A DNA stretch of 16,289 nucleotides from IMG/VR virus record IMGVR_UViG_3300028920_000020. One strand, given 5' to 3'. The DNA is from a virus. Numbering within the stretch: the stretch's first letter is position 1; every line of letters starts with the position of its first letter. This document shows, piece by piece, positions 1,899-16,289 of this stretch. Both the position numbers and the translations under genes were made by a program. A model generated the notes under the pieces. The model made no database searches, was not told the DNA's origin, and saw only the letters and a program-made list of their open reading frames with translations.

Positions 1899-1958
1899 AT
1901 GGGTAGGTAGTCTCGCATGCGGGATTTATGGCTTATAAGATAATATCGACGTCTTCTC

Positions 1959-1987: not shown

Positions 1988-1993
1988 GAGACT

Positions 1994-2480: not shown

Positions 2481-2500
2481 GATTTATTAGCAGTTTACAG

Positions 2501-2523: not shown

Positions 2524-2531
2524 AAAAACTT

Positions 2532-3287
2532 ATGAAAATAGCTGTAGCAAGTCAAAAAGGCGGGGTCGGTAAAACCACAACATCACTCTCTCTAGCTTCT
2601 TATTTAGCCCGTCAAGGTAAAAAAGTCCTACTTGTTGATACTGATAGCCAAGCCAACGCCTCCAAAGTCCTTATACCTGAATATCTGAAACTGAAAAGAG
2701 ACGAAACCATTTGTGCCACTATCCTTGATCGGAAGCCCCTTGTAGTTTATGAGACAGAAACCCCAAACTTAGATCTAGTCCCCTCTCACATCCTTCTATC
2801 AAATGCCGACACCGAGCTTACCATCGCTAAGGATCACCGGGAATCAAGGCTAAAAACAGAGCTGGATAAAATAGCTGATAGATACGACTTTATCTTTTTA
2901 GACTGTCCCCCATCGCTTGGCTGGCTTACAATCAACGCATTTACAGCAGTAGACAAAATTTTGGTTGTTGTTAGTCCGGGTTACTTCGAGCTTGATAGTG
3001 TCGTCCAGCTTAGCAAAACCCTTGCAGAGTGCCGGGAATACTACAACCCCACCCTTGACCTTTTAGGAATGTTGTTTGTGATGGCCGATCCAACAGTCAA
3101 CAGCAGAGAGAGTTTAAAGATACTTAGACAAACTTACTCCGGCTCGGTATTCAATACCATCATCCCAAGAAACACCGACCTAAGAGACGCCCACTTTCAG
3201 AAACAAGACATTTTTGCTTATAACCCAAATTCAAAAGGTGCTTTAAGTTATAAGAGATTAGTGGAGGAAATATGGCCAAAAAAGTAA
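2532..3287 (+). CDS. parA: ParA/Soj-family partition ATPase, 251 aa
   Basis: N-terminal deviant Walker A (MKIAVASQKGGVGKTTTSLSLA), VLLVDTDSQANAS, FIFLDCPPSLG (Walker B region), and typical ParA length. Confidence 0.9.
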   Translation: MKIAVASQKGGVGKTTTSLSLASYLARQGKKVLLVDTDSQANASKVLIPEYLKLKRDETICATILDRKPLVVYETETPNLDLVPSHILLSNADTELTIAKDHRESRLKTELDKIADRYDFIFLDCPPSLGWLTINAFTAVDKILVVVSPGYFELDSVVQLSKTLAECREYYNPTLDLLGMLFVMADPTVNSRESLKILRQTYSGSVFNTIIPRNTDLRDAHFQKQDIFAYNPNSKGALSYKRLVEEIWPKK

Positions 3288-3700
3288 TCCCCGACACGAT
3301 GGTTAATGAGTTAAGCGGTGGAAGTAGCCTTTTCACCCGCTCCCCTACCCCTAAACCTATGCCTACGGCTTCATCTAAGCCCCCCAAACGCACGATAAAG
3401 AGGAAAGTGGCAAGTAATACCCCAATCAAGAAAGAAAGCGAGCAATCAATCAATCATGATAGCGTGATAGCACTGATTCGGTCAGCAGTTAAAGAAACCG
3501 GCAAAGAAACCTCCTATCATCGACTAACAACAGAAGAAAAATCAAAGTTGGAGGACGTTATCTACACTTATAAGAAGCAGGGGTATCGGTTATCAGAGAA
3601 TGAAGTCGCCAGAATTGCCATAAATTGGTTGATGGAGGATTACAAACAGAACGGCAAAAATAGCATTTTAGATTTAGTTATTGAAAGCTTGAAAGCATGA
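3272..3700 (+). CDS. Small ParA-partner or putative centromere-binding protein, 142 aa
   Basis: Overlaps the parA 3' end by 16 nt, with GGAGGA SD 5-6 nt upstream. It has a disordered K/P/S-rich N-terminal third and a helical C-terminal domain. The call rests on position; no ParB HTH or ParB-N motif was seen. Confidence 0.4.
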   Translation: MAKKVIPDTMVNELSGGSSLFTRSPTPKPMPTASSKPPKRTIKRKVASNTPIKKESEQSINHDSVIALIRSAVKETGKETSYHRLTTEEKSKLEDVIYTYKKQGYRLSENEVARIAINWLMEDYKQNGKNSILDLVIESLKA

Positions 3701-3715
3701 TAGCAAGCAATCACG

Positions 3716-4048
3716 ATGGATAATATTAAAGACATAGTAACCAATCGTAAACCACAAGCGGTGCTGGTGCTTGAAAGAGGCTGGAAAAATAGGGGATATG
3801 TATCAATCAGCAACAAGATTCTCTATAACACCAAACTTGAGCCGGTTGCTAAGCTTCTTTACTGGTATTTACTAACCCGGTGTTTTCAAAAAAAAGATTG
3901 CTTCCCCTCATTGGACATAATTCACAAAGATTTAGGGATAACACCAAAGACAATCATCAAATACAAAAAAAGCCTTATAGAAGCGAAGCTAATCAAAGTT
4001 ACAAGAAGGGGATGGGGGAAGACAGATGTGTATACCCTCAAATTTTAG
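3716..4048 (+). CDS. Winged-helix DNA-binding protein, 110 aa
   Basis: The pattern ...AKLLYWYLLTR...CFPSLDIIHKDLGITPKTIIKYKKSLIEAKLIKVTRRG... is typical of phage/plasmid wHTH proteins (FPS-x3-I-x6-G-x2-x-T). Confidence 0.6.
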   Translation: MDNIKDIVTNRKPQAVLVLERGWKNRGYVSISNKILYNTKLEPVAKLLYWYLLTRCFQKKDCFPSLDIIHKDLGITPKTIIKYKKSLIEAKLIKVTRRGWGKTDVYTLKF

Positions 4049-4053
4049 CTTGC

Positions 4054-4097
4054 TGAATTGTACTTTTTACACTTCATGAATTGTAAAATTTTCACAC
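4054..4097. repeat. Two direct repeats TGAATTGTA(C/A)(T/A)TTTT(T)CACAC in the AT-rich spacer upstream of the wHTH-HNH gene
   Basis: TGAATTGTACTTTTTACAC at 4054-4072 and TGAATTGTAAAATTTTCACAC at 4077-4097. Confidence 0.5.
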
Positions 4098-4148
4098 TAA
4101 TAAATAAGAAGCTAATAATTAAGAATCTAAAAGAAGATATAAATATAT

Positions 4149-4649
4149 ATGGATAAAAACATCTATCAAAACAAAAACTGGATCGTTAGTCGGAGCTGGC
4201 TATTAAAGCAACTGGCACCACTTAAAGGCCCGAAACTATCGATTCTTATTTCCTATCATTTGTTTAGGGCTTCGGGGATATGGCCAACAGTAAGAGATTT
4301 GGCGGATTCTACTGGTTTGGGCAAAGCTGGGGTATCAAAATATTATCGGGAAATGGTTAAGGCTGGCTATTTAGAGCAACCAATTTGTGCTGTTTGCGAC
4401 AAAAGAACGACTATCAGCTTATTACACCGGCACCACGTAAAACCAAGAAGGGACGGGGGAGACGAATCAGAAACTAACTTTTTGAATGTTTGTAAATCGT
4501 GCCACAACAAAATCGAGCCGAGAAAAAGAATAGACAAGGTTTTGAAGGCTAAAAATATACTTGGGCTTTTTGAGAAAGAGGCTGGAATAAAAATGCCGGC
4601 GAGGATAACCAGACCACTGGCAAAGTTTTTGGCCAATAGACTTTACTAG
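4149..4649 (+). CDS. wHTH-HNH endonuclease fusion, 166 aa
   Basis: N-terminal wHTH-like segment (WPTVRDLADSTGLGKAGVSKYYREMVKAGYL). C-terminal HNH core CAVC...HRHHVKPRRDGGDESETNFLNVCKSCHNKIE (Cys pairs, His-His, Asn, His). Confidence 0.8.
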   Translation: MDKNIYQNKNWIVSRSWLLKQLAPLKGPKLSILISYHLFRASGIWPTVRDLADSTGLGKAGVSKYYREMVKAGYLEQPICAVCDKRTTISLLHRHHVKPRRDGGDESETNFLNVCKSCHNKIEPRKRIDKVLKAKNILGLFEKEAGIKMPARITRPLAKFLANRLY

Positions 4650-4692
4650 CTCGCCCCAGTCGCATGATTCTATCTGAAAGGTAATCTTTGCC

Positions 4693-4863
4693 ATGGAGGC
4701 CGCTAGAGGGTTGAGTAAGTTACTTGCGTACGCCGTACGCAACTCTCTACCGAACGCTCCCAAATCGGGGGAAACGAAGGATGAAGGGATTAGAAATTTG
4801 GCTCGTGAGATTGGTAAATCAGAAGCCTATATCCGTAACCACCTCGACCTCCTCACCGACTAA
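4693..4863 (+). CDS. 56-aa ORF resembling the ParB/Spo0J helix-turn-helix region alone (mini-ParB or ParB remnant)
   Basis: Below the ORF-track size cutoff. Translation: MEAARGLSKLLAYAVRNSLPNAPKSGETKDEGIRNLAREIGKSEAYIRNHLDLLTD. The segment LAREIGKSEAYIRNHLDLL matches the canonical ParB HTH pattern (LA-x2-G-K-S-x3-(I/V)-x-N-x-L-R-L-L). There is no ParB N-terminal domain. An in-frame TGA at 4675-4677 closes the frame upstream. Confidence 0.45.
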   Translation: MEAARGLSKLLAYAVRNSLPNAPKSGETKDEGIRNLAREIGKSEAYIRNHLDLLTD

Positions 4864-4940
4864 AAATCTTTCCTTCTGATAACCACCCAAACACCGATCA
4901 GGACAAGACCGGCGATGATCATAATTCTTGATATCGGCAT
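4860..4940 (-). CDS. 26-aa single-pass membrane peptide (MPISRIMIIAGLVLIGVWVVIRRKDF), start-stop coupled to the upstream Zn-ribbon gene
   Basis: The minus-strand ATG (4940-4938) overlaps the TAA stop (4942-4940) of ORF 4940..5182 as TAATG. It has a hydrophobic core flanked by R and RRK, with stop TAG at 4862-4860. Confidence 0.4.
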   Translation of the reverse strand: MPISRIMIIAGLVLIGVWVVIRRKDF

Positions 4941-5182
4941 TATTTAATTCTCTTAATGGCCTTTTCTAGTGTTGCCAGTTTCTTTTTTAGTTCCGCTTTT
5001 CTTAATTCTTTACGTCGTTGTCTTTGATAAGCATTGATTTTCTCTCGGCTCTTTTTTCGGTACTCTTTTTTCCCCTCTAAGTATTTTTTTCGGTTGGTCT
5101 TTTTCCAATGTTCGTGTTGACACCGGTCAGAGCAAAATTTAGGCCTTTTTGTCTTTTTTTTACAAACTATACATCTATTCAT
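4940..5182 (-). CDS. FCS/TRASH-like zinc-ribbon protein with a highly basic helical tail, 80 aa
   Basis: CIVC-x10-FCSDRC matches the C-x2-C...FCS-x2-C zinc-ribbon signature. The remainder is K/R/E-rich (KKYLEGKKEYRKKSREKINAYQRQRRKELRK...). Confidence 0.6.
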   Translation of the reverse strand: MNRCIVCKKKTKRPKFCSDRCQHEHWKKTNRKKYLEGKKEYRKKSREKINAYQRQRRKELRKAELKKKLATLEKAIKRIK

Positions 5183-5193
5183 TTTTCTTATAA

Positions 5194-5299
5194 AACCAGT
5201 CCCCTATCGGGGGTGTCTGTCCCCAAAATTGATATTATAGGCACAAATAACCAGTCCCCTATTGAATAGGGGAGGGGATTGAATAACCGAGCAATAACC
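5194..5299. promoter_or_regulatory. Divergent control region with direct repeats, a 19-bp perfect palindrome and AATAACC repeats
   Basis: AACCAGTCCCCTAT at 5194-5207 and 5249-5262 (55 bp apart). CCCCTATCGGGG at 5201-5212. Perfect palindrome TCCCCTATT-G-AATAGGGGA at 5255-5273. AATAACC at 5246, 5282 and 5293. Minus-strand TATAAT at 5239-5234. Confidence 0.55.
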
Positions 5300-5339
5300 G
5301 CCATTGGCTAATTTTAACACCTATGGCGTAATATTAAGA

Positions 5340-5501
5340 ATGGATGTAAAAAGGGCAAGGAAGTTATTGAAAGGGGAGGGGAGAAGAATGACAGACGAAG
5401 AGGTGAGAGCTACCATAAAAATCGCCACGCTTTTGTCAGATACCGTAATTGACAGTTGCTTGAAACAGACAACCACCAAAAACCCGCCCTCTCACAATTA
5501 G
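5340..5501 (+). CDS. Small hypothetical protein (53 aa from ATG 5340; 37 aa if ATG 5388 is used)
   Basis: The ORF-track start at 5304 is a TTG. ATG 5388 is preceded by GGGGAGGGGAG (SD about 8 nt upstream), so the shorter form may be the real one. No motif recognised. Confidence 0.4.
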   Translation: MDVKRARKLLKGEGRRMTDEEVRATIKIATLLSDTVIDSCLKQTTTKNPPSHN

Positions 5502-5575
5502 GAAAATTGTTCGTCGGCGAGTATTTTGGATGGTATCTAGTGGTAAACCATCTTTTGCCATTGTTAGACTAAGTT

Positions 5576-5890
5576 ATGAAGCACAACGCCCGGCAACTTA
5601 ATTGGATTTTAGGGGAAATTGAGCAAACAGGTTATATCCAATTTGACGACATAAGGGACTACTACAACGATGGCAAATTGAGTGCCAAACACTTAGCCGC
5701 CGCCAAAAAGAGCGTCAACTTTTTGATTAAAGCTGGATGGATAAAGAAAAGAAAAGGCCGGTTAGTTTTTACCAAGCTGGGGAGGGTATCGTGGGGTTTT
5801 GCCGGTAACGCTAGGTTTATAAAAACAATGATAGAGAAGGAATTTAAGTTTTTGGTAGCCGGGTGGGACGTGGGGAAGAGGAAGGACTAA
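5576..5890 (+). CDS. Hypothetical protein, 104 aa, possible winged helix
   Basis: Closed ORF. The segment SVNFLIKAGWIKKRKGRLVFTKLG resembles a recognition helix plus wing. Confidence 0.5.
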   Translation: MKHNARQLNWILGEIEQTGYIQFDDIRDYYNDGKLSAKHLAAAKKSVNFLIKAGWIKKRKGRLVFTKLGRVSWGFAGNARFIKTMIEKEFKFLVAGWDVGKRKD

Positions 5891-5998
5891 AACGACCACT
5901 GGTTGATCACATTCTTTCCTTTTCCGGCCTTCTGATTGGCTTTTAGGAGGATCTTTTTTAGACGATTAAGTTTCAGGCTTGTTTCTTCTGTTTTTTTC

Positions 5999-6412
5999 TT
6001 ATTTTTCCTTTTTTTCATATTTTGGTGAACGAGTAACGGGCCGGGGACAAATCAAGTGATTGCCATAGGAATAAACCATAATGGCGTACTTGGAAGACCT
6101 GCCACTACCCAATTTTATGGGAAGTGAGTGATAGTTTGCCATAAAGACTTTTTCTCCCTTTTTTAGATCACGGTATATCTTGATCAAGGGGATGTTAGTT
6201 TTTGTCGCAAATTCTTTTGGGGTATAGATGACGGTAATCAGCTTTTTGGCGACAGTTTCACCCATGGCTAGATAAAAATTTTTCCCGGCTTTTGTTATTC
6301 CGTTTTCTTCCAACAGACCTTTTTTGTCCCATTGCCAGATTGTTTGGGGGGTGACGTTTTTAGCTTTTGCGATTTGCTTGACGTTACACAGCCCAATGCT
6401 AATTGTTTGCAT
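5999..6412 (-). CDS. DNA-binding regulator with two tandem excisionase/MerR-type HTH motifs, 137 aa; candidate repressor
   Basis: Two HTH motifs: VKQIAKAKNVTPQTIWQWDKKGLL and TPKEFATKTNIPLIKIYRDLKKGEK. The gene is transcribed divergently from the replication operon. Confidence 0.65.
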   Translation of the reverse strand: MQTISIGLCNVKQIAKAKNVTPQTIWQWDKKGLLEENGITKAGKNFYLAMGETVAKKLITVIYTPKEFATKTNIPLIKIYRDLKKGEKVFMANYHSLPIKLGSGRSSKYAIMVYSYGNHLICPRPVTRSPKYEKKEK

Positions 6413-6417
6413 ATCTT

Positions 6418-6447
6418 ATTTTAAGCCTTTTGATAACCAGTTGTCAA
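6418..6447 (-). promoter_or_regulatory. Minus-strand promoter TTGACA-18 nt-TAAAAT ending 5 nt before the ATG at 6412 (leaderless candidate)
   Basis: Minus-strand read: TGC-TTGACA-ACTGGTTATCAAAAGGCT-TAAAAT-AAGAT-ATG. The -35 lies in the imperfect palindrome TTGATAACCAGTTGTCAA (6430-6447). Confidence 0.5.
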
Positions 6448-6564
6448 GCACAAGCCTAAAAAGAAGCCCAAAACATAGTTTTCTCTATGGTGTTGAATAG
6501 GGTATTCCGTTTATCAGAAAATAGTATATAGCCAAAAAAGGCAATTAAAAATTTAGAAAAAATT

Positions 6565-6858
6565 ATGGAAGAAATAGAGAAAGACCACTTTACCACCACG
6601 GATGTTTCCACGGCTTCGGCTTTGTTGGCGACTGGAAAAGTTTTGTTTGACGGCTTGAAAGAATCAGGAAATGGCAGAAAGAATATATGTCTAACCCCCA
6701 GACAGACAGCTTTGGAGCTTTACAGCGACTACAGGAGAGGGGAATTGATGGTAAACGCCAGTGACAACGGCCGATGGGTACAGAAGTTGAAGAAAGAAAT
6801 ATTTGGAGGAATCAGTAGTTTAAGAAATGGAGGCCAAGATGGTGAAATCGAAATCTAA
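6565..6858 (+). CDS. Small protein, 97 aa, DUF5659-like
   Basis: The pattern F-T-T-x-D-x-x-x-A-S-A-L-L-A-x-G...NICLTP...YRRGELMVNA...LKKEIF resembles the DUF5659 family common in phage and metagenomic elements. This comes from recollection only. Confidence 0.45.
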   Translation: MEEIEKDHFTTTDVSTASALLATGKVLFDGLKESGNGRKNICLTPRQTALELYSDYRRGELMVNASDNGRWVQKLKKEIFGGISSLRNGGQDGEIEI

Positions 6859-7483
6859 ATTTACACAAATTCCCAACGATATAATCGAAGCTTTGTGCCG
6901 GACTAATCTAACAGCCACCGAGCTTTCCATAGCTTTTATTGTATTGAGAATGACCTATGGTTATCAAAGAAAATCCAGCGAAATCAGTATCAGTTACCTG
7001 ATGAAAGCGACAGGAAAATCACGCCCTTCAATTACTAAAATGACCAATCAACTAGTTAAGAAGGCGATACTAGTTAAGCAGACTTTACTAGGTAGAACTT
7101 CAAAACTAGGTATTAACCCAAACATAGGGCAATATTCGCATACTAGTAAAGTAGACGATACTAGTAAAGTAGACGATACTGAACTAGTTAAGCAGACTTT
7201 ACCCAATAAAGAAATAAATAAAGAGAGAAAGAAAAAGAATCGCCATTTGAATAAGCAAGACATGGAGAAGATTGCCAACGACTTACGTGTGGTGGTGACG
7301 ACGGTAGAGTATGAATACCAAAAAATGCTTGATTGGCTGGCGTCAACTGGCAAGGTGCGAAAAGATTACGTTGCGACACTCCGAAACTGGATAAGGCGAG
7401 GGATGGAGGATGGCCGAATTAAACCAATTAAAAGTTATGAGGAGCAAGTCCGGGACGAAAACCCAGACATAAAAATTATATGA
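6839..7483 (+). CDS. Lambda O-like (Phage_rep_O N-terminal domain) replication initiator, ~214 aa
   Basis: FTQIPNDIIEALCRTNLTATELSIAFIVLRMTYGYQRKSSEISISYLMKATGKSRPSITKMTNQLVKKAIL matches the Rep-O wHTH signature. The ORF-track start is 6827, but ATG 6839 has GGAGG 5 nt upstream. The gene contains iterons internally. Confidence 0.8.
   Translation: MVKSKSKFTQIPNDIIEALCRTNLTATELSIAFIVLRMTYGYQRKSSEISISYLMKATGKSRPSITKMTNQLVKKAILVKQTLLGRTSKLGINPNIGQYSHTSKVDDTSKVDDTELVKQTLPNKEINKERKKKNRHLNKQDMEKIANDLRVVVTTVEYEYQKMLDWLASTGKVRKDYVATLRNWIRRGMEDGRIKPIKSYEEQVRDENPDIKII
7051..7240. repeat. Candidate origin of replication: five or more ACTAGT(T/A)AAG iterons followed by an A/G-rich, AT-rich tract, inside the initiator gene
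   Basis: ACTAGTTAAG at 7051, 7069 and 7183. ACTAGTAAAG at 7142 and 7160. A 20-mer ACTAGTTAAGCAGACTTTAC at 7069-7088 and 7183-7202. An 18-bp tandem TACTAGTAAAGTAGACGA at 7141-7158 and 7159-7176. AATAAAGAAATAAATAAAGAGAGAAAGAAAAAGAAT at 7205-7240. Confidence 0.65.
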
Positions 7484-9111
7484 AGCCAATAGATTACGCC
7501 AAAGCCTACCTACAACTAGGCTGGTCACTTATACCAATTAAGCCAGATACCAAGACACCGCCTATAAAATGGGCAGAGTATTGCGACACCAAAGCTACAA
7601 TTTTTGAAGTAGAGGAATGGTTGAGCAAAGGATGGTGGTTAGCAGTCGTCACCGGTGATATATCGGGATTGGTGGTGGTAGACGACGACAGGATTAAACA
7701 CAACCTCAAAGAGTGGGGCTTTGATTCTCCTGTAGTAGCCAAAACCCAAAGTGGCGGAAAGCATTACTACTTCAAATATGACCGAGAGATACACAGCCAC
7801 CAAAACCACGAGATTTTTGTTGACCTCAAAGGCTGGCATAGTTATTGCCTATTACCTCCATTCAAGGGTAGAACATGGATCAAGTCGCCAACCAAGAACA
7901 TCGACAAACTCAAACCTTTATCAGATGAGATTGTCAGATTGCTCAATTCCGACAAAAAGGAGCAAAACAGCGACCCCCTAAGAATGGCGGATTTTGTTGA
8001 CATACCCGATGGCAGTCGAACAGATAGTCTTTATCGGATAGCCATGTCTACCTTCCAAAAAATGCCAAAGGATGACGCTTTGAGAGTATTGGCAGGAGTC
8101 AATGCCACCTACAACCCACCACTGACAGAAAAAGAGTTTAAGTATCAAACCTCAAGGGCATTGCAGAAAGTAACCATCGGGACAAAAGTCCCAGTGGTTG
8201 CACGGGACAATAGTTCCACGCAGAAAACTCCATCCGTTATCTATTCAAAAATGTCAGACACCGAGATTGACGATTATGAGACTAGACCCTATCTCCCGGT
8301 AGGATTATCAAAACTAGACAGGGAGTTTCCGTTTCCGTCTGGTTGGTATGTGATTTTAGGCAACCCCGGAAGTGGCAAAAGTTTCATGTCATTGTGGATG
8401 GCTCGTCAGTTCTTTGTGAAGCACAAGAAAAAAAGTGTTTTATTCACCTTGGAGATGTCAGAAGAAGCCTTGAGACCACGGATAATGCAATCGTGGAGTG
8501 ACTTAACCTTGGATCAGTACAGGGGAGGAGTTGACACTAGGAGAGCAAAAGAGCTGATGAAAAAAGACGCCCTTGAGATTTACCCTTTTGGACAGGCCGA
8601 TTCGAGTTATCAAACTCCTGCTAATTTCAAAAAGGACTTTGAGGAGTATTACCAAAAAGGGATCAGGGTGTTTTTCTTCGACCACTTTCACGAACTAGAG
8701 GGAACGACAGACAATAACACTAATCCCCAAGTAACCGAAGCATGGAGTAAAACCTTCGGCGATATATCCAAAGAATATGACGACGTGTGGTTGTTTGTAT
8801 TCGCCCAACCAAACAAAGGCGGAGCAAGAAAAACCATATTGAGGAGAGAAGATGTAGGCGGATCGGGCAAGCTAACCCAGAAATGTGATTTTGTCTTATC
8901 AATTAACCGAAAGGTAAAGAATGGATTAGGAGGAGAGGTGGAAGTAATAAGCGAAGACAGAAGTGTCATTTTATACGTTGACAAATCAAGATTCTTTGAT
9001 CGCACGCACTTTGGTATCAGGCTTCACTTCGACGACACAGGAAATTTTAGAGATCCCAACGAACCACCCACACCGCAAGAGTCGGGATTTAATCGTTCAT
9101 ATAAAGACTAG
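7480..9111 (+). CDS. Bifunctional primase-polymerase (Prim-Pol) / DnaB-like (RecA-fold) replicative helicase, 543 aa
   Basis: N-terminal Prim-Pol motifs: GWSLIPIKPDTKTPPIKW, GLVVVDDD (metal-binding acidic motif) and TQSGGKHYYF. C-terminal Walker A LGNPGSGKSF and Walker B VFFFDHFHEL. ATGA overlap with the initiator gene. Confidence 0.85.
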   Translation: MKPIDYAKAYLQLGWSLIPIKPDTKTPPIKWAEYCDTKATIFEVEEWLSKGWWLAVVTGDISGLVVVDDDRIKHNLKEWGFDSPVVAKTQSGGKHYYFKYDREIHSHQNHEIFVDLKGWHSYCLLPPFKGRTWIKSPTKNIDKLKPLSDEIVRLLNSDKKEQNSDPLRMADFVDIPDGSRTDSLYRIAMSTFQKMPKDDALRVLAGVNATYNPPLTEKEFKYQTSRALQKVTIGTKVPVVARDNSSTQKTPSVIYSKMSDTEIDDYETRPYLPVGLSKLDREFPFPSGWYVILGNPGSGKSFMSLWMARQFFVKHKKKSVLFTLEMSEEALRPRIMQSWSDLTLDQYRGGVDTRRAKELMKKDALEIYPFGQADSSYQTPANFKKDFEEYYQKGIRVFFFDHFHELEGTTDNNTNPQVTEAWSKTFGDISKEYDDVWLFVFAQPNKGGARKTILRREDVGGSGKLTQKCDFVLSINRKVKNGLGGEVEVISEDRSVILYVDKSRFFDRTHFGIRLHFDDTGNFRDPNEPPTPQESGFNRSYKD

Positions 9112-9576: not shown

Positions 9577-9719
9577 CACCGCAAGGGAGAATTATCACGC
9601 CCAAAGTCTGGCAGAGAATGAGAGAGGAGTGGTTGAAAGGAAAAATCACACCTCCCTCTTTCATGGCCTCAAATGCAAGTTTACCCATTCAACCGAGTTG
9701 CAAACCCTTTTCCATATAA
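9573..9719 (+). CDS. Possible 48-aa ORF (MTPQGRIITPKVWQRMREEWLKGKITPP...), ATGA-coupled to the membrane peptide
   Basis: ATG 9573-9575 overlaps TGA 9574-9576. This is the tail of ORF-track entry 9441..9719. No motif recognised. Confidence 0.25.
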   Translation: MTPQGRIITPKVWQRMREEWLKGKITPPSFMASNASLPIQPSCKPFSI

Positions 9720-9732
9720 GCCAAACTACACT

Positions 9733-9966
9733 ATGAGCAAATCAACTACTTATCAAGTCAATATTACTTTTCGACCAACCCAGGCTGAAACGCTAAAAAA
9801 ACAAGCGGAAGCAGAGGGGCGGAGTTTGAGTAATCTCGTTAGACACATCTGTGACAATTATTTACGGGAGAGGAAACAGCTGTTACTGCCTACCTCTCCC
9901 ACCACGGAGGGAGGGGGGAAAGGATCGCAATACAATCCAGCCACCCCCTTCTCCCCGACCTTATAA
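9733..9966 (+). CDS. Ribbon-helix-helix (CopG/Arc/MetJ-type) DNA-binding protein, 77 aa
   Basis: From internal ATG 9733, YQVNITFRPTQAETLKKQAEAEGRSLSNLVRHICDNYL is a textbook beta-strand/helix/helix RHH pattern. The tail is P/T/G-rich and looks disordered. Confidence 0.7.
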   Translation: MSKSTTYQVNITFRPTQAETLKKQAEAEGRSLSNLVRHICDNYLRERKQLLLPTSPTTEGGGKGSQYNPATPFSPTL

Positions 9967-9978: not shown

Positions 9979-10266
9979 ATGAAAAAGAAAAACAACACTT
10001 GTGACATTTGTCAGAAGAACGAATGGAATTTTATGGTGACATTCTATAACGGCCAAACGGCTAAAATTTGCCTTGATTGTTACCCCATCTTTAGAGAAGT
10101 GAATAACAACCTGATGGTGAAAGACTATCATCAAAAACTCAAAGACATTCGAGACGGCAAGCCCCCCCGTAAAAAGATGACAAAAAAACAAATCAAGCAA
10201 ATTGACGCTGAAATTGAAAAAGAATTTGGGAAAAAGTTAATTGATGAAATCAAAAATGAAGCATAA
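9979..10266 (+). CDS. Zinc-ribbon protein 1 of a tandem triplet, 95 aa
   Basis: CDIC-x19-CLDC followed by a K/E-rich helical tail. Confidence 0.6.
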   Translation: MKKKNNTCDICQKNEWNFMVTFYNGQTAKICLDCYPIFREVNNNLMVKDYHQKLKDIRDGKPPRKKMTKKQIKQIDAEIEKEFGKKLIDEIKNEA

Positions 10267-10537
10267 GTTTTCAAAATGCCACGGCTGTAAAAAACGTTTC
10301 AGGACTGTTCATCTATGGAAGTCTAATCACCCCCTTGCCGCCCCAGCTAAGTTTTTTTGCGAAGCCTGCTGGATGGAGAAGACGGGTATCAACGTCAAAA
10401 TGTTGCTGAGGTATTACGGCTTTGCTAAGAAAAAAGGCAGTACCGAGTATTTAGGCAAGATTTACGACAATAGCACTGATTACGAAAAATATAAGTTCAT
10501 TGAAGCAATAGGGGAGGAGTCAAATGTCGCTATGTGA
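10244..10537 (+). CDS. Zinc-ribbon protein 2 of a tandem triplet, ~97 aa
   Basis: CHGC-x22-CEAC. The ORF-track start at 10241 is a TTG and the first ATG is at 10244. Overlaps the previous gene by 23 nt. Confidence 0.6.
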   Translation: MKSKMKHKFSKCHGCKKRFRTVHLWKSNHPLAAPAKFFCEACWMEKTGINVKMLLRYYGFAKKKGSTEYLGKIYDNSTDYEKYKFIEAIGEESNVAM

Positions 10538-11096
10538 AGTTTGTAAAATTAAGAAACCAGCCAGCCTGATTTTTGATCATACAGGGACTAGACACGCTGT
10601 TTGTGACAAATGTCGACCACAGATTACCGTTCATGCAATTCTTGCAGAGATGGCTATTCAAAAATCTTTTCTTGAAGAAAAACTTTTTAAATATATCCAA
10701 TATCTCAAAGAAAACCCTCATTCCCAAAACACATACCAAATATCACAAAGCTTCAACGAAGATTTCGAAACGATGATGTCTCGATTAAGTCAAATTATCC
10801 TTGTCAAACATTTTGGCAGAGTGGCAAAATCCGATCAGGGATGGATTCAGCCCGATGTCCCACTTCCGGTCATAAAACCCAAAACCAAGCCTAAAAAGAC
10901 AAAAAAACCCCTTGTTAGCGACGATTTAAAGCCCAAAAAAACCAAGCCTAGTACAAAATTACCTAAAAAAGACAAGGAATTATTACACGCCGACAGGGAA
11001 ACTAAACCCAAAGCTAAAAAGACACCCAAAAGCAACAAATATAATCTTACAGATTCAACAAAAAAGACATGGCAAAGAGCAAACAAAAAAACTTAG
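10524..11096 (+). CDS. Zinc-ribbon protein 3 with a long K/P-rich low-complexity tail, 190 aa
   Basis: CEVC-x19-CDKC with GGAGGAG SD 4 nt upstream. The C-terminal third is KPKTKPKKTKKPLVSDDLKPKKTKPSTKLPKKDK...KPKAKKTPKS, resembling a histone H1-like tail. Confidence 0.7.
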   Translation: MSLCEVCKIKKPASLIFDHTGTRHAVCDKCRPQITVHAILAEMAIQKSFLEEKLFKYIQYLKENPHSQNTYQISQSFNEDFETMMSRLSQIILVKHFGRVAKSDQGWIQPDVPLPVIKPKTKPKKTKKPLVSDDLKPKKTKPSTKLPKKDKELLHADRETKPKAKKTPKSNKYNLTDSTKKTWQRANKKT

Positions 11097-11602
11097 GGGG
11101 CAGGCCTTCCAAGTACAAACCAGAATATTGCGATCAAGCTATTAAATATTTCAACATTGAGCCTCATTTTGAGACACCAGTTGAGACACAAAAAAAAGGC
11201 GTCGTCGAGACAAAGATTAAATTTATCCCAGCAGATCTTCCAACACTTGCCGGCTTTGCTAAAAAGATCGGTGTTTCCAAAGATACTTTGAATGAATGGC
11301 GTAAGGTATACCCAAAGTTTTCCGTTGCTATTAAAAAGGGAAAGACCGCCCAAGAGCATATTTTGATCACAAACGCCCTAAAAGGTGGCTACGCCCCGGC
11401 CTTCTCTATTTTCTTTGCCAAGAACAACATGGGATGGAAAGATAAACAGGAGCAGTCAGTAAACATGACCGTTTCCCCTTACGACAACCTATCAGATGAT
11501 CAGCTTGACGAGGTGTTAGAGAAGAAGTTCGGTGAATGGCAGGCAGATAAGAAACGATCAAAACAATTATTAGAATCTAAACAGGAGGCAATCAATGGAT
11601 AA
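11069..11602 (+). CDS. terS: Small terminase subunit, HTH type (Sf6 gp1-like), 177 aa
   Basis: The N-terminal GGRPSKYKPEYCDQAIKYF, then LAGFAKKIGVSKDTLNEWRKVYPKFSVAIKKGK (HTH), then FFAKNNMGWKDKQE. Together these match the conserved GRP-x-x-Y-x-PE ... W ... F ... and LKN...W+DK pattern of this TerS family. Confidence 0.7.
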   Translation: MAKSKQKNLGGRPSKYKPEYCDQAIKYFNIEPHFETPVETQKKGVVETKIKFIPADLPTLAGFAKKIGVSKDTLNEWRKVYPKFSVAIKKGKTAQEHILITNALKGGYAPAFSIFFAKNNMGWKDKQEQSVNMTVSPYDNLSDDQLDEVLEKKFGEWQADKKRSKQLLESKQEAING

Positions 11603-11842: not shown

Positions 11843-12271
11843 ATGCCAAACAAAAACAACACAAAAACACCTCTAACTACAGAGCAACAGATTCACGCCA
11901 ACGAGTTAAGCCGATCCACTGTCACCGGCTTCAAAGACGGCCAATTTATTAGAGAAGATGTGGCCACTCGCTTCGAGAGACAAAGAAACGAAGCCAAAGC
12001 CATGACAAACAAAAAGCACAGTTGGAAACAGGTTAAAACTCAACGCCAGTTGAACATGGAGGAAAGAGCCAAGGAGAGCCAATCTTTTTATGATTTAAGA
12101 CAGGCGAGACAAGAGCAAGCCCAATCCGCCCTTGATAGATTAGCCAAGCAAGTAAAGTCCGAGATCCCCACACCCAAGGCGTCAGTCATGAATGCAAAGG
12201 AACGCCCGGCAAATTATGAATATTTGTCAGATACAGAAAAGAGACTTATTGATTCAGCATTAAAACAATGA
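11843..12271 (+). CDS. Hypothetical protein, 142 aa, charged and helical
   Basis: Closed ORF in an operon context. Q/R/E/K-rich central region. Confidence 0.6.
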   Translation: MPNKNNTKTPLTTEQQIHANELSRSTVTGFKDGQFIREDVATRFERQRNEAKAMTNKKHSWKQVKTQRQLNMEERAKESQSFYDLRQARQEQAQSALDRLAKQVKSEIPTPKASVMNAKERPANYEYLSDTEKRLIDSALKQ

Positions 12272-12504
12272 CCAACCCAAATCCTATTTCACCATCGACA
12301 ATCATGACCGAGAACGCCGTTTTAGAACGTCTTGATATTATCCAAGATCAGTTTGCACATTCATCTAACGATGTTCAGGCACGATTAGACGAACAGAAAC
12401 TAATTCATGATTTTATCAGGGCTTTAACAATCCCCGGTGGAGTAAGAGAACCTAAGAAATGTGCCGAAGCTTTGGTTGAAAGCACACATTTCATCAACAT
12501 ATAG
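12268..12504 (+). CDS. Hypothetical protein, 78 aa
   Basis: ATGA overlap with the upstream gene. Confidence 0.55.
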   Translation: MTNPNPISPSTIMTENAVLERLDIIQDQFAHSSNDVQARLDEQKLIHDFIRALTIPGGVREPKKCAEALVESTHFINI

Positions 12505-12575: not shown

Positions 12576-12728
12576 ATGACTAAATCAAAAGTATTTCGAA
12601 TCATATCGCTTAAAGGTTCAGCTCCGGATGCCCCAATTAAAAAGGGTTTACCAAGCAAGAAACATTTAGCTTTTCTAGCAAAACAAAACCGCAACCCGAA
12701 GAAACAATTTCCAGAGGGAGGTAAATAA
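12576..12728 (+). CDS. Possible 50-aa basic protein (MTKSKVFRIISLKGSAPDAPIKKGLPSKKHLAFLAKQNRNPKKQFPEGGK)
   Basis: Below the ORF-track cutoff. Its TAA (12726-12728) overlaps the ATG of the 444-aa gene as TAATG, which would fill an otherwise 223-nt gap. Confidence 0.35.
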   Translation: MTKSKVFRIISLKGSAPDAPIKKGLPSKKHLAFLAKQNRNPKKQFPEGGK

Positions 12729-14062
12729 TGGCATTTGCTAACGCATATTACGACGAGCAACAAAATCAAAACATTGCTCCTACTCTATCTCAACTACAGG
12801 GCAATTTCTCAGAACCTCTAAATGCTGGTGTAGCCGCCACAGGCACAGGTGACGCCGACACTTACTGGAATCAAGGCTGGAACATGGGTTTTAATAATCC
12901 TTCTACTGGCTATTCAGGAAGTGACGTAAATGAACAAGCTGGCTATATTCAAGGTCAGAAAGACTATTGGCTAAGAAATCCCCAAACAACCACTAGCCCT
13001 ACAACGAATAACAATCCTCAACCAACCACCCCCCAACCGACAAACAACACCTCAGGCGAACTTTCATTTGACGATATTTACAACCAGGTTTATCCTGGAT
13101 GGGGAAGACAGGAGGCATATAACGACTGGGTGGCAAAGGGAAAGCCCCAGCCCACAATCGGAACAGGTGCTAATGGTCAACTTTCCGAAGAACAACTAGC
13201 TCAACAACTAACTAATGATTTAAATTCAGCCTATCAGCCAGCTATGGATGTTTTAGGTCAACAAGAGCAATACCTTCGTGATGCTCAACCCGCTTCCGAA
13301 AAAGCCATTCAAGATCAATTTTCTTTACGCCGAGGCGAACAAGAGGGAGATTGGAAAAGTGCTCAAGAACAATCCGAGTTAACCCAGCGAAAACTTTGGG
13401 ATGAAAAAGAAAACGTACTCGACCAATCACGCCGGTTATACGATGAGTTACGCCGAGGAGCAAGACAGCGATTTGGTGGTTCTTCATCCGCAGGTGAGGC
13501 AGTCAATACTCTTTTGGGTTTGGAACAACAGCGACAAATGGGAGACACCAAAAGAACTTACATGAACAACATTGCAGAGTGGGAACGATCAAAAGCCGAC
13601 ACCGAGAGAGCTTATAAGCAAAATGTAGCCCAGCTTAATCTGGCAAAAGACGAAGCAATTCGAAAATCTCAAGACGCTTTTAATGCCGGTATGCTTCAAA
13701 TTGCTCAAAGTAAAGCAGGACTAATGACCGAAAAAGGGCTTCGACGACTAGACCTACTAACCAACCTCCGTGATTCGATTATGAAGGCTCAAGCAACAGC
13801 TCAGGAATGGCAGGATAAACTTTCATACCAGCGGGAATTAGCTGAGATGAATTTTGCCTACAGACTCCAGGAAATTCAAGCAATGGCTAAATACAAGACC
13901 TATGCCCCAACCAAATCAAGCTACTCCACAGTCGACGTTGATGGCACAACTAAAGTATTTGATAAAACCACGGGGCAAGTTAGCGATATAGGTAGCGCCC
14001 AGGGCCAAATTGGTTTGCCTTCAACATATAAACAGTATTACGGACTTGATGAGGAGGTTTAA
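12728..14062 (+). CDS. 444-aa protein of unknown function: Q/N/G-rich N-terminus, P/T-rich linker, long coiled-coil C-terminal half
   Basis: Very strong SD (GAGGGAGG). Features include NNNPQPTTPQPTNNT and a heptad-like charged region from about aa 170 to 400. No enzymatic motif recognised. Confidence 0.8.
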   Translation: MAFANAYYDEQQNQNIAPTLSQLQGNFSEPLNAGVAATGTGDADTYWNQGWNMGFNNPSTGYSGSDVNEQAGYIQGQKDYWLRNPQTTTSPTTNNNPQPTTPQPTNNTSGELSFDDIYNQVYPGWGRQEAYNDWVAKGKPQPTIGTGANGQLSEEQLAQQLTNDLNSAYQPAMDVLGQQEQYLRDAQPASEKAIQDQFSLRRGEQEGDWKSAQEQSELTQRKLWDEKENVLDQSRRLYDELRRGARQRFGGSSSAGEAVNTLLGLEQQRQMGDTKRTYMNNIAEWERSKADTERAYKQNVAQLNLAKDEAIRKSQDAFNAGMLQIAQSKAGLMTEKGLRRLDLLTNLRDSIMKAQATAQEWQDKLSYQRELAEMNFAYRLQEIQAMAKYKTYAPTKSSYSTVDVDGTTKVFDKTTGQVSDIGSAQGQIGLPSTYKQYYGLDEEV

Positions 14063-16289
14063 TGCCCTCATTCAACGAACTCTTTCAAACAGCCCTTAGC
14101 AAGCTAGTCAATTCCAAGCCAGTATCAACAGTTCGAAGTGCTGGTCAAAACGTCCTTCAAAGTGCTAAGCAGGGCTACGCTCAATGGCAAGCTAAACCCT
14201 ACAATCAACTGGTTAAAAATATCGGCTCGACTATATCTCAAAAGGTAGAGTCTGCTATCCCGGGTGGTTACGAAGGAGCAAAGCAACGTCTATCTCAAAC
14301 CAAACCCATTCAATACTCACCGTTTGGCTTTATTAACGAAGCCCCACGCAACGCCTCAGTCTTGTTTGGTAAGAACGCAGACATAGCCGAACACGGCCTT
14401 AGGGGGATGATAGACCCCATCGGTTTAGCCAATAAAACCACTCAATATCTCAACCCTTCCTATAATCAATTATTCCAACCTACCACTCAAAGAGAAAAAA
14501 CAGCTAGAAAGGTAGGACAATCAATATCCGGAACCATAGCCACTGCTCCTCTTGGTGGGCCAAATATGGCCGTAAATGTTGGTAGGCGTGCTATTCAGGG
14601 AACTTTACTTGGTACCGGCATGGGGCTAGCTGGTAATGCTTTATCAGGCAATCCCTTAACCCAAGATCTAGACAAATCAGCACTTCAGGGTCTCTCCAAC
14701 TCATGGCAACTTTCCGTAACCAACCTTATAGCCGACAAGATAGGAAGTTTTATACCTAAACTCAAAGGCACAACGTCAGGACAGTTGGATTTAACTGGCC
14801 AACTTCTAAAAAACCAAGCCAAGATGGGAGCAGACACCAAAGCTCTACTCACCAAAACAGCCAAAGACTTATTTTTAAGAGCGATGGTAGAAACAGGGAC
14901 GGAGACGACATGGTTTTCAGCCTTCGATGAAGAAGATAAAAGAAAGTTTCTAGAAAAGTGGTGGTCTAACCTTCCGGGTAACTTCTTAGGTAACGTATTT
15001 TTTGGCAGTTTAGCCTTTACTAAAAGGGCCAGCATTGACGCCAACCCCCAACTAATTATGGACGCTAAAATAGCCTTTCAGAAGACCATGAAGAATATGT
15101 TTGGTGGCAGTCAATACTCTCAACGTGGTGGTGTTGATCCTAAGTATGTGTTTGGAGAAGAAAAACTACCTTGGGAAAAACAAGATCCCAACTCTCCCAA
15201 ACGTAACAGGAAAGAACCCTTCACCGCCAAGCGTGGTGCTGGTAGCTATTCACAAGATCCCACCGTCGACAACCCACTTTTAAAACAAGCTAAACAGGAG
15301 TCTTACAAGTTCGATGACAGAGCTGACATTGACAGAATCGTCACCCTTGGAGAATTACACGAGTATGAGGTAGGCAAGAAGCCAATCAAACAGCTAATCA
15401 ATCGAATCCTTAAGCCATTAAACAACGCCCCGGACAACATTAAGGAAATGATGACGGAATGGAACACCAAACTGATGAAAGGCAAAGTGAAGGCTAATGT
15501 TTTAGCTAAAGACTTTTCCAACATTGATGCCGAGACAGGCTGGAAGTTGACCCAATACATGCAAGACCCAACCCCAGCCAATGCTAGAAAGCTGAAGTTC
15601 GATGTTGAGAAATACGCCCCGGATATTAAGAAGACACGAAAGCTTTTAGACTTCTATTACGACCAAGCTCAAAAGAATGGGGTTGATCTAGGCTACAGAA
15701 AAGACTATATGCCACAGGTTTGGGAGGAAACACCCGGACAGATTGACGCCAAAGTTAGAGGTCTAGGAACTAAACCAGCATTTGCCCAAGAAAGAAGGAT
15801 CCCAAATTATCAGGAAGGTTTAGAACTGGGGCTAACCCCACGCTACACACACCCCGGCCAGCTACTCGCTGATTATCGATACAAACTAAGCAAATCAGTG
15901 GCTAACAAGAGACTAATGGCCAAGCTCTTAGATACAGGCTATTTAGTGCCTTCTAGTGAAGCCCCAGCTGATTGGAAACAAATCGAAGCACCATATCTCC
16001 CCAAAGCTACTATGACGATGGCAGACAGGGAAATTGTCAGCAACTATTCAGCCCCTCCATCTATTGCCGATTCACTTAACTCAATCTTTACCAACGACAA
16101 ATCAGGCCTTGGTGAGCTGGTTGAAATGACAGCAAAACTATCAAGCAAAATCCAAGAAGTTAGACTAACTGGCGGTATCGGCCCACTTAACTCTTTTACC
16201 GTCGGTCAGATGATTAAGGAAGTTTATGCCGGCAGGTTAAAGTCCCCTCTCACTTCTTTTGTTAGAGCTTGGTCGCCAAAACAAACCGA
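14062..16289 (+). CDS. N-terminal 742 codons of the ~1,164-aa wrap-around protein (continues at 1..1394); unknown function, glycine-zipper hydrophobic segment
   Basis: ATG 14062 overlaps the preceding TAA as TAATG, with GAGGAGG SD 4 nt upstream. I translated every codon from 14062 to 16289 and found no stop. The segment SISGTIATAPLGGPNMAVNVGRRAIQGTLLGTGMGLAGNALSG is reminiscent of tape-measure or ejection-protein hydrophobic stretches. Confidence 0.85.
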   Translation, partial: MPSFNELFQTALSKLVNSKPVSTVRSAGQNVLQSAKQGYAQWQAKPYNQLVKNIGSTISQKVESAIPGGYEGAKQRLSQTKPIQYSPFGFINEAPRNASVLFGKNADIAEHGLRGMIDPIGLANKTTQYLNPSYNQLFQPTTQREKTARKVGQSISGTIATAPLGGPNMAVNVGRRAIQGTLLGTGMGLAGNALSGNPLTQDLDKSALQGLSNSWQLSVTNLIADKIGSFIPKLKGTTSGQLDLTGQLLKNQAKMGADTKALLTKTAKDLFLRAMVETGTETTWFSAFDEEDKRKFLEKWWSNLPGNFLGNVFFGSLAFTKRASIDANPQLIMDAKIAFQKTMKNMFGGSQYSQRGGVDPKYVFGEEKLPWEKQDPNSPKRNRKEPFTAKRGAGSYSQDPTVDNPLLKQAKQESYKFDDRADIDRIVTLGELHEYEVGKKPIKQLINRILKPLNNAPDNIKEMMTEWNTKLMKGKVKANVLAKDFSNIDAETGWKLTQYMQDPTPANARKLKFDVEKYAPDIKKTRKLLDFYYDQAQKNGVDLGYRKDYMPQVWEETPGQIDAKVRGLGTKPAFAQERRIPNYQEGLELGLTPRYTHPGQLLADYRYKLSKSVANKRLMAKLLDTGYLVPSSEAPADWKQIEAPYLPKATMTMADREIVSNYSAPPSIADSLNSIFTNDKSGLGELVEMTAKLSSKIQEVRLTGGIGPLNSFTVGQMIKEVYAGRLKSPLTSFVRAWSPKQT
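16163..16289. repeat. Right copy of the 127-bp terminal direct repeat (identical to 1..127)
   Basis: See the left copy. GACTAACT begins at 16163. Confidence 0.95.

Follow-up and report, generated by a model that had tools for sequence, protein, structure and literature searches.

We report that the window, by which we mean the whole 16,289-bp stretch of DNA analysed here, is made of one complete 16,162-bp unit followed by 127 redundant bases, and that the element it represents is probably an episomal phage satellite (a satellite-plasmid), a closed circle whose small terminase subunit (TerS) would direct its use of helper particles. The satellite lifestyle, the dependence on a helper and the mode of packaging are what we infer in this reading, and the host would possibly belong to the Patescibacteria. 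Coordinates below are window positions on the plus strand, except where the minus strand is given.

Closure of the 16,162-bp unit

The first 127 bases of the window are identical to the last 127, an agreement that is negligible as a chance event (about 4^-127). The prefix/suffix overlap stops at 127 bp, with none longer when all values of k from 100 to 199 were tried, which sets the unit at 16,162 bp, and the bases beside the two copies are unlike (TCAATATTTCAAC after the first copy vs ATCCAAGAAGTTA before the second). The original prediction had taken such a repeat as typical of a closed molecule linearised by a de Bruijn assembler, and other assemblies of the same element bear this out. One of them (L011; ENA ERZ27252234, record k141_1444191, MEGAHIT k141, 16,303 bp) also contains a 16,162-bp unit, with 8 mismatches compared to the window, its opening lies at window position 14060, 2.1 kb away, and its exact terminal overlap measures 141 bp; the length of the overlap, in other words, tracks the k of the assembler (127 vs 141), and the breakpoint is arbitrary. 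Two further contigs, each with the 127-mer present once, read across the 16162|1 join, namely L001 (12,916 bp, 100% identical, covering 8890 through the join to 5643) and L002 (6,682 bp, covering 9953 through the join to 472). Because the overlap is 141 bp long and sits at another locus in L011, and because the 127-mer is single in L001 and L002, the repeat represents the k-mer overlap produced when a de Bruijn assembler follows a cyclic path, and not a 127-bp terminal repeat. A genuine 127-bp direct terminal repeat on a linear phage genome was rejected on the evidence of L011 and also because the 127-mer lies within an ORF: its first copy (1 to 127) is ordinary coding sequence, single in L011 as well, while the second (16163 to 16289) is redundant, and trimming it gives the 16,162-bp unit. 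Several public assemblies contain the element again, with identities of at least 99.9%; they are independent as assemblies, but their read sets may overlap, so that they are not necessarily independent samples, and their contig ends are scattered around the circle.

The window fits the circular-contig signature of de Bruijn assemblers (metaSPAdes 127, MEGAHIT 141), an exact direct overlap of length k, without any difference, and is in fact a textbook case of it. Alone, this signature would look the same for a circle and for linear DNA that is permuted or has long DTRs, since the latter also gives rise to a cyclic assembly graph, so that physical circularity is something we infer, from the plasmid-type genes described below.

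A long ORF had also been predicted to read through the junction in frame, and it does. In the circularised sequence, an ORF of 1164 codons runs from 14062 through 16162|1 to 1394, with the join at position 2 of codon 701 and the 127-mer at codons 701 to 743, and the intact 1164-aa gene is called as one gene in L001. In the window its N-terminal 742 codons are at 14062 to 16289 and the gene goes on at 128 to 1394; as an ORF of the linear sequence, the C-terminal part spans 1 to 1394, with the stop codon at 1392 to 1394. No minus-strand ORF of at least 60 aa crosses the join.

Replication, partition and regulatory genes

A Rep-O-like replication initiator of 218 aa is encoded at 6827 to 7483 (PF04492 Phage_rep_O, E = 1.1e-17; phrog_678/277), and inside its gene there is a putative origin (7051 to 7241) where five direct iterons (ACTAGTWAAGNAGRC), starting at 7051, 7069, 7142, 7160 and 7183 and clustered at 7051 to 7197, are followed by an A-rich tract at 7205 to 7241. 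Five iteron matches were observed vs 0.35 expected, and none of 200 shuffles reached five. The lambda ori in gene O is built alike, in that a Rep-O-family initiator carries direct iterons and then an A/T-rich tract within its own coding sequence; the five iterons of the window, however, are 15–18 bp long and of different sequence, and whereas lambda recruits the host DnaB via P, the window encodes its own fusion of a Prim-Pol and a DnaB-type helicase (543 aa, 7480 to 9111, Pfam/PHROG profiles). An HTH_36 DNA-binding protein of 110 aa (3716 to 4048) is related to the N-terminal domains of replication initiators.

Partition is represented by a ParA-type ATPase of 251 aa at 2532 to 3287 (PF13614, E = 1.9e-49; CbiA; ParA; phrog_164, E = 3.8e-61). 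Just upstream, at 2454 to 2524, repeated GACACTCCC and GGGACTCCCC motifs occur together with a promoter-like site, and this region might serve as a par operator or centromere. A 142-aa gene that overlaps the parA stop codon (3272 to 3700) is, from its position, a candidate for the centromere-binding partner; its product matched no Pfam or PHROG family and shares 43% identity with a 131-aa protein of the related element L007. Compared with an iteron-type theta plasmid with active partition, the initiator gene, the iteron cluster and the A-rich tract are all present (with binding of the initiator being predicted), and ParA is clear, while the 142-aa partner and the upstream repeats are candidates only. 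The original prediction had called the molecule a replicon, and the predicted Rep-O-like initiator, iterons, helicase and ParA justify this term.

A MerR-like HTH regulator, which has a homologue in the related element L008, is encoded on the minus strand at 5999 to 6412, and a gap of 152 bp separates it from the replication operon that it faces. Among the promoter-like sites of the window, the best one (6447 to 6418, minus strand) has 11 of 12 consensus positions. Profile matches also identified a winged-helix and HNH endonuclease protein of 166 aa (4149 to 4649, Pfam/PHROG) and a ribbon-helix-helix protein of the CopG/Arc-like type (9673 to 9966). The genome is 92% coding, its longest non-coding stretch measures 173 bp, and neither tRNA genes nor Rfam families were found in the window. 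We also considered a conjugative or mobilisable plasmid, and rejected it as no relaxase was found, the only matches being sub-threshold ones to NikA-like/RHH proteins and DUF736.

Phage-type genes and missing virion genes

The virion-related genes of the element are limited to TerS and to a block encoding proteins of 78, 444, 1164 and 135 aa. TerS (177 aa, 11069 to 11602) is of the gp3 type (PF16677, E = 2.4e-12; phrog_3064/309/606) and shares 29–41% identity with annotated TerS proteins of phages of about 44–48 kb. The 78-aa protein (12268 to 12504) is conserved with the 444/1164 pair in L005 and L007, and the 135-aa protein (1434 to 1841) is conserved in L007 and L008, where its gene also follows the large one. 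The 444-aa protein (12728 to 14062), the upstream partner of the 1164-aa gene, is predicted to combine a disordered N-terminus with a long hairpin of antiparallel coiled coil. The phage-type block takes up about 6.8 kb (42%) of the genome and is intact in all copies other than L002, where the 1164-aa gene has a premature stop. Clustered SNPs in this large gene had suggested diversity-generating mutagenesis, which we rejected given that the substitutions are not adenine-specific and a reverse transcriptase is absent.

The 1164-aa protein, which has a Gly-rich conserved core at aa 57–423, belongs to a family of 1,370 cluster representatives, to which a third word-indexed homologue search, run with the alignment, contributed a single protein. 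Its C-terminal region (aa 427–1054) is 42% identical to a protein of L061/L022. Ten of the 32 family members scanned matched phrog_6651, annotated as 'internal virion protein', and some members bear LPD1, PBECR5, DarB-like or SLT add-ons; the protein of the window itself matched no PHROG or Pfam model, so that the suggested virion role is that of the PHROG labels of distant family members. Genomic context points in the same direction, as 444-like and 1164-like genes are kept adjacent in about 30 loci. In the 36-kb phage L063, the pair has a virion structural protein on one side and the tail fibre/endolysin on the other, and in L010 it adjoins SLT and an SU10 adaptor. Structural analyses gave a predicted all-helical 1164-aa protein, although the model of its homologue is of low confidence outside aa 100–320. 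Searches of PDB sequences with the 444-aa and 1164-aa proteins returned nothing below E = 0.2, and Foldseek gave, for both models, nothing beyond generic hits to coiled coils or helices, with TM-scores too low to be meaningful; as none of these matches was significant, we make no claim that either protein is a structural homologue of T7 gp15/16 or of tape-measure proteins.

No TerL, capsid, portal, tail, lysis or integrase gene was found in the window by Pfam/PHROG profiles, six-frame analysis, ORF size or fold checks. Searches by tblastn with the TerL proteins of relatives and with the recombinases of L007 and L008 were negative, and a family-specific TerL HMM run on 315 six-frame segments gave a best score of 0.2 bits. 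Five ORFs reach at least 200 aa, every one of them assigned, which leaves no space for further virion genes, and fold models were made within this size class, with the two large proteins of unassigned family (444 and 1164 aa) predicted to be all-helical or a coiled-coil hairpin. There was neither a match to a capsid or protease family nor an ORF suitable for one, and the complete virion module (TerL, portal, major capsid protein, tail) of a phage-plasmid of the P1, N15 or SSU5 type, or of an autonomous tailed phage, is absent. Because the unit is closed, the gene list is complete, and TerL, capsid, portal and integrase are truly absent from it rather than lost through contig truncation. The inventory had been expected to be complete and its gaps meaningful, and both expectations hold; relatives do carry TerL and recombinases.

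Relatives of the element

The block of 78-, 444-, 1164- and 135-aa proteins is common to three integrated mini-elements of 13–15 kb (L007, L008 and L016), at 33–43% identity. These resemble the window in the shared block, in carrying a primase/helicase and in having no capsid, and differ from it by carrying TerL and a tyrosine or serine recombinase (tyrosine integrase in L007, serine recombinase in L008), whereas the element studied here has TerS only, plus ParA. L016 is an island of about 14 kb, with TerL, the gene pair, a D5 primase and a serine recombinase, in a 158-kb Gottesmanbacteria (CPR) contig, with host-type genes on its left flank. The element of the window would be an episomal form of these mini-elements, without TerL. 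A 27-aa fragment at the start of L007 was considered as the tail of a ParA, and is not one.

A megablast search of phage and plasmid collections with the whole unit came back without a match, a literature search for the sample accessions had no hits, scans of IMG/VR with the 1164-aa protein or its alignment gave no relatives, and a profile scan of JGI metagenomes gave short fragments only. MT835830, a 17-kb 'Bacteriophage sp.' record, was discarded as an analogue because TerS is all that it shares with the window and it seems to be a piece of an ordinary phage.

Discussion

The life cycle that we consider most likely, and that would make the element a satellite-plasmid, is the following. The Rep-O-like initiator would bind the five iterons in its own gene beside the A-rich tract, in a lambda-like intragenic origin, and the Prim-Pol/DnaB helicase would drive replication, with the divergent MerR-like regulator facing the replication operon; ParA and its small downstream partner would partition the copies, and the element would persist in the cell as a circular plasmid. 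Upon infection by a related helper phage of about 40 kb, the TerS of the element would direct the helper TerL to package element concatemers into helper capsids, into which the element's own internal or ejection-type proteins could perhaps be loaded.

It is also conceivable, though unlikely in our view, that this is an ordinary low-copy plasmid, inherited vertically and transferred incidentally, whose phage-derived genes (TerS, HNH and the 444/1164 pair) are cargo or relics, with no dedicated hijacking of a phage. ParA, the Rep-O protein with its iterons and the helicase would indeed make a self-sufficient replicon; the exact TerS was seen only on copies of the element, and no helper phage was found by that route; and the premature stop in L002 hints that the 1164-aa gene is dispensable. 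Such a plasmid, however, would devote 42% of a 92%-coding genome to a phage-type block that is intact in the other copies. Relatives in which TerL accompanies the block moreover conserve it at 33–69% identity, which speaks in favour of selection for packaging or transfer, and we know of no role for TerS beyond packaging.

Still less probable is a linear phage-like genome with its true ends elsewhere, either circularly permuted and terminally redundant by headful packaging, or with direct terminal repeats longer than k, that collapses to a cycle in the de Bruijn graph. Either topology would give the overlap signatures of the window and of L011, and the TerS is of the gp3 family, whose founding member, P22 gp3, comes from a headful-packaging phage. 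Two contigs (L013 and L014) both end at window position 9734, but four assemblies read through this position, and an exact-pattern scan of JGI metagenomes, a collection evidently without the samples of this element, found no variant branching there. No non-coding stretch exceeds 173 bp, as a terminal region would call for, and ParA with an iteron origin points to a circular replicon within the cell; a linear form, besides, would concern the packaged DNA only and would be compatible with a satellite-plasmid. We give very little credence, finally, to the idea of a minimal virus that is autonomous and whose capsid, portal and packaging ATPase escape recognition because they have diverged too far or are too small. 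Relatives of about 40 kb also have few recognisable structural genes, and thirteen small ORFs of the window are without annotation; no unassigned ORF, on the other hand, reaches 200 aa, and the two large proteins are predicted to fold unlike HK97 or jelly-roll capsids, portals or ATPases. The relatives, furthermore, use a conventional TerL, by which a portal and an HK97 capsid are implied, and this element can encode neither.

Returning to the satellite-plasmid, which we favour, a TerS-only circle maintained by ParA and with relatives in CPR genomes would extend this lifestyle to uncultivated ultra-small bacteria. To our knowledge, ejection or internal-virion genes are not usual in known satellites, which speaks against this reading, and a satellite encoding internal-virion-type proteins would be an unusual feature. 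A broader reading, which we offer tentatively and with some doubt, is that the window is the closed, episomal member of an undescribed family of capsid-less mini-elements of 13–16 kb tied to phages of Patescibacteria (CPR). Such elements would combine a packaging subunit (TerL or TerS) with their own coiled-coil and giant helical internal-virion or ejection proteins, would act as satellites by supplying the helper capsid with DNA-delivery proteins of their own, and would exist in integrated (recombinase) and plasmid (ParA) forms.

Comparison with known satellites

Satellite P4 in its plasmid state is a multicopy circle that replicates from its own primase-helicase, with all virion proteins provided by the helper. 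The element resembles it in size (11–16 kb), in its own primase-helicase and in the helper supply of virion proteins that we propose; P4, however, has cos sites, no terminase subunit, an integrase and the Sid/Psu capsid modifiers, and no sequence similarity between P4 and the window was found. PICI/SaPI and PICMI resemble it in size and gene content, being about 15 kb in length, with a primase/helicase by the origin, a divergent regulator, their own TerS without TerL, and no capsid or tail genes. Judged by what defines PICI/SaPI, the window has its own primase/replicase beside the origin and its own TerS without TerL, capsid, tail or lysis genes, the exception being the virion-type 444/1164 pair. 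It lacks the integrase and att site of PICI/SaPI and PICMI, with ParA and a lambda-O-type initiator instead, and, unlike in PICI/SaPI, capsid-size-redirection genes were not recognised.

The window also resembles satellites that live as plasmids. For tailed phages, descriptions of satellites carried on plasmids are recent and limited to Vibrio (PMC13230959), and a review from 2025 counts a single proven plasmid satellite (PMC12282955). Circular satellite-plasmids of 11–16 kb are known with parA/repA, TerS and a MerR-like regulator, and without an integrase (PMC13230959). In Vibrio crassostreae, cf-PISP (15.8 kb) and TG93 (11.1 kb) are, like the window, small closed extrachromosomal circles with parA and rep and with neither integrase nor tail genes, and TG93 also shares the small terminase and the MerR-like regulator (PMC13230959). 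Compared by description, capsid genes are present in both (as a full capsid module, or as capsid E with a protease; PMC13230959), whereas the window has none. The window, unlike these two satellite-plasmids, encodes the pair formed by a coiled-coil protein and a giant helical protein of the 'internal virion protein' family, and its host is probably unrelated to theirs.

Results

Direct comparison of the two ends of the 16,289-bp window confirmed, as the original prediction had stated, that the terminal 127 bases are identical, and because no prefix/suffix identity beyond 127 bp was found in the window, the non-redundant unit measures 16,162 bp. When this unit is circularised, a single 1164-codon ORF extends from 14062 across the join (16162|1) to 1394, the join falling on base 2 of codon 701, so that the reported in-frame reading across the junction is also borne out. 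Copies of the element were found on other public contigs through the exact 444-aa protein and the exact 543-aa helicase. Contig L011 (ENA ERZ27252234, record k141_1444191, 16,303 bp) carries the same element, differing by 8 mismatches, with an equal unit length of 16,162 bp, opened at window position 14060 and ending in an overlap of exactly 141 bp. L001 (ERZ27252253, 12,916 bp) matches circular coordinates 8890 through 16162|1 to 5643 at 100% identity, with the 1164-aa gene called intact as a single gene, while L002 (ERZ27252208) spans 9953 to 472, and each of these two contigs contains the 127-mer once. The terminal overlap tracks the final k of the assembler, being 127 in the window and 141 in the k141-named MEGAHIT contigs. 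A 141-bp overlap at another opening point, together with a single-copy 127-mer across the join, means that the overlap is set by k, that the opening is arbitrary, and that the sequence across the join is real; a true terminal repeat of 127 bp is therefore rejected, and the earlier attribution to a de Bruijn overlap on closed sequence holds. The assemblies compared are independent as assemblies and may share underlying reads.

Ends of the partial or complete contigs (n=10) are scattered around the circle, and only 9734 recurs; since four assemblies read through it, a branch point between variants is a likelier explanation for this position than a molecular end. The two contigs concerned, L013 (JGI 3300028883) and L014 (ENA ERZ27252208), differ in sample and in assembler, have starts no more than 19 bp apart (6998 and 7017), both end exactly at 9734, and contain nothing beyond the helicase and the final part of the rep gene, which suggests a second element in these samples with a common 2.7-kb replication segment and divergent sequence outside it. 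An exact-pattern scan of JGI metagenomes, a collection evidently without these samples, found no variant branching at 9734. Differences between near-identical copies cluster in the 1164-aa gene, at 15262-15378 and 16073-16162. In L011, seven of the eight mismatches lie inside 117 bp (3 non-synonymous, 4 synonymous), and in L002 all four lie inside the 90 bp immediately before the join, one of them creating a TAA stop that yields a 670-aa truncated protein. Such clusters may represent recombination patches with a co-occurring strain, and a graph bubble at the cluster may be the reason the assembler opened the circle there.

Coding sequence makes up 92% of the unit, whose 26 genes include 24 on one strand and whose longest non-coding gap is 173 bp; no tRNA gene or Rfam family was matched in the window. 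Its maintenance and replication set comprises a ParA (2532-3287, +; PF13614 E 1.9e-49, phrog_164 E 3.8e-61) whose stop codon is overlapped by a 142-aa gene, an HTH_36 protein, a winged-helix/HNH protein, a MerR-like regulator (5999-6412, -) preceded by the best promoter-like match of the window, a Rep-O-like initiator (6827-7483, +; PF04492 E 1.1e-17), a Prim-Pol and DnaB-C helicase fusion (7480-9111, +), an RHH protein and several small zinc-ribbon-like proteins. Within the initiator gene, five iterons ACTAGTWAAGNAGRC in the same orientation start at 7051, 7069, 7142, 7160 and 7183 (0.35 expected; none of 200 shuffles reached five) and precede an A-rich tract at 7205-7241, the same layout as in phage lambda, whose origin sits inside gene O.

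The coding strand is rich in A over T (5505 vs 3942), with an AT skew of ~0.15-0.27 across most of the element that reverses only at 5000-6500, the site of both minus-strand genes. This leftward-transcribed region holds, besides the MerR-like regulator, a highly basic 80-aa ORF (4940-5182, -), whose N-terminal region contains CxxC...CxxC and which weakly resembles the zinc finger of HNH proteins (phrog_1271, E 6e-4). Three small genes that follow and overlap one another at 9979-11096 (95, 98 and 190 aa) all open with zinc-ribbon-like CxxC...CxxC motifs; the tail of the 190-aa protein is rich in lysine and proline, with repeated DNA units AAACC(C/T)AAA(G/C)C(T/C)AAAAAGAC at 10876-11031.

Downstream lies a gp3-type small terminase subunit, TerS (11069-11602, +; PF16677 E 2.4e-12, phrog_3064/309/606), 29-41% identical to annotated TerS of ~44-48 kb phages, and 3' of it a block of 80-aa, 142-aa, 78-aa, 50-aa, 444-aa, 1164-aa and 135-aa genes, in that order. 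The 444-aa protein has 38 homologues (word-indexed search) and is modelled as a disordered N-terminus followed by a long antiparallel coiled-coil hairpin (helices 154-389, pLDDT mostly 76-96), and its matches in the PDB are limited to generic coiled coils. Close relatives of the 1164-aa protein are few, but a profile search reached 1,370 cluster representatives, and E was <= 1e-30 for 910 of these. Among 32 family members scanned, phrog_6651 'internal virion protein' was matched by 10, phrog_11358 by 13 and phrog_37402 by 11, and individual members carry LPD1, PBECR5 nuclease, DarB-like or SLT domains, accessory domains typical of polyvalent phage proteins that are injected. The model of a homologue (P0001, 69% identical) is all-helical with zero beta strand, confident only at residues ~100-320, and gave no significant match in either of two fold libraries. 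Adjacency of the two genes is kept in ~30 related loci, mostly 35-44 kb IMG/VR contigs; the pair is flanked by a 646-aa virion structural protein on one side and a tail fibre and endolysin on the other in the 36-kb phage L063, and adjoins an SLT protein and an SU10-type adaptor in L010. These positions parallel those of the internal-core genes of T7-like podoviruses, as a positional analogy rather than demonstrated homology. L063 also carries a 375-aa ORF (114-1241) in which an N-terminal fragment from a major head protein (phrog_1328, aa 2-99) is fused with an HNH endonuclease domain (aa ~190-309), which suggests an HNH insertion or intron-like interruption of its capsid gene.

No ORF in the whole window matched Pfam or PHROG profiles for large terminase (TerL), portal, capsid, protease, tail, lysis or recombinase families, and tblastn of the relatives' TerL, tyrosine integrase and serine recombinase against it returned nothing. 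A TerL HMM seeded with four relatives and run unfiltered on all 315 six-frame segments of the circle scored at best 0.2 bits (E = 4.4), while recovering ~21 ORFs in relatives. The five distinct ORFs of at least 200 aa in any frame (1164, 543, 444, 251 and 218 aa) are all accounted for. Closure of the sequence makes these absences genuine, and the meaning originally given to the lack of integrase, TerL, capsid and portal in a complete inventory stands.

Among the relatives, L005 encodes a large protein 69% identical to that of the window, with TerL directly 5' of the same block, while L007 (TerL and tyrosine integrase) and L008 (TerL and serine recombinase) are 13-15 kb contigs without space for capsid genes. 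L016 lies within a 158,781-bp contig (JAUXTO010000042.1) of a Gottesmanbacteria MAG, of the Patescibacteria candidate phyla radiation (CPR). Its left flank is made of host-type genes (DEAD-box helicase, cyclophilin, F420 ligase, hydrolase), and a ~14-kb island (~6900-20670) follows with TerL, 444-like, 1164-like, CAP-domain protein, small ORFs, D5-type primase-helicase and serine recombinase, a candidate phage satellite of a Patescibacteria host. Further genome matches include Patescibacteria MAGs, and UniRef names one homologue a CPR3 bacterium protein. In several related phage contigs TerL is divided between one ORF for the ATPase (~264 aa) and another for the nuclease (~210 aa). The two halves are adjacent in L038, L040 and L054, and flank a 6-7 kb block with a 444-like gene in L053, L055 (3390-4181 and 11511-12137) and L069. 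A 1164-like gene is also present in the L055 block, and none was detected in L053 or L069. Such an arrangement could reflect either a split TerL or insertion of the block into TerL.

Discussion

As an assembly signature the terminal repeat is ordinary, and what matters is what closure brings to light. Both the observation and its interpretation as a closed replicon stand, and we regard closure and completeness as highly probable. From their gene sets, L007, L008 and L016 appear to form a family of compact capsid-less elements with a satellite-like build (recombinase, primase/helicase, packaging subunit), of which the window element would be the episomal form, with ParA in place of the recombinase and TerS in place of TerL.

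How such an element lives can be read in more than one way. Three kinds of molecule yield a cycle in a de Bruijn graph: a circular one, a linear one that is circularly permuted, and a linear one whose terminal repeat exceeds k. The assembly overlap alone does not separate them. The plasmid genes make a physically circular state probable; a linear packaged form, permuted or with long direct terminal repeats, seems improbable, and would concern the particle only, being compatible with a satellite-plasmid. A minimal autonomous virus with unrecognisable capsid genes is very improbable, as ORF sizes, predicted folds and the conventional TerL of the relatives all speak against it. A plain plasmid carrying phage relics is also unlikely in our view, if less so than either of these.

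A satellite lifestyle is plausible, in our view an evenly balanced proposition. The element would be kept in the cell as a circular plasmid and, upon infection by a related helper phage, its TerS would bring the helper TerL to element DNA. SaPI TerS redirects helper TerL to satellite DNA in this way and provides the model for the proposed role. Concatemers of the element would then enter helper capsids, and the 444-aa and 1164-aa proteins may enter the particle as internal or ejection proteins. Closure would in this case reveal a variant of a recently recognised kind, the satellite-plasmid, possibly tied to CPR phages. According to a 2025 review, just one plasmid had been proven as a satellite at that time (PMC12282955). 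In Vibrio, circular 15.8-kb and 11.1-kb parA/repA 'satellite-plasmids' offer a precedent for the parA and rep circle described here, and one of them similarly combines a small terminase with a MerR-like regulator and lacks an integrase (PMC13230959).
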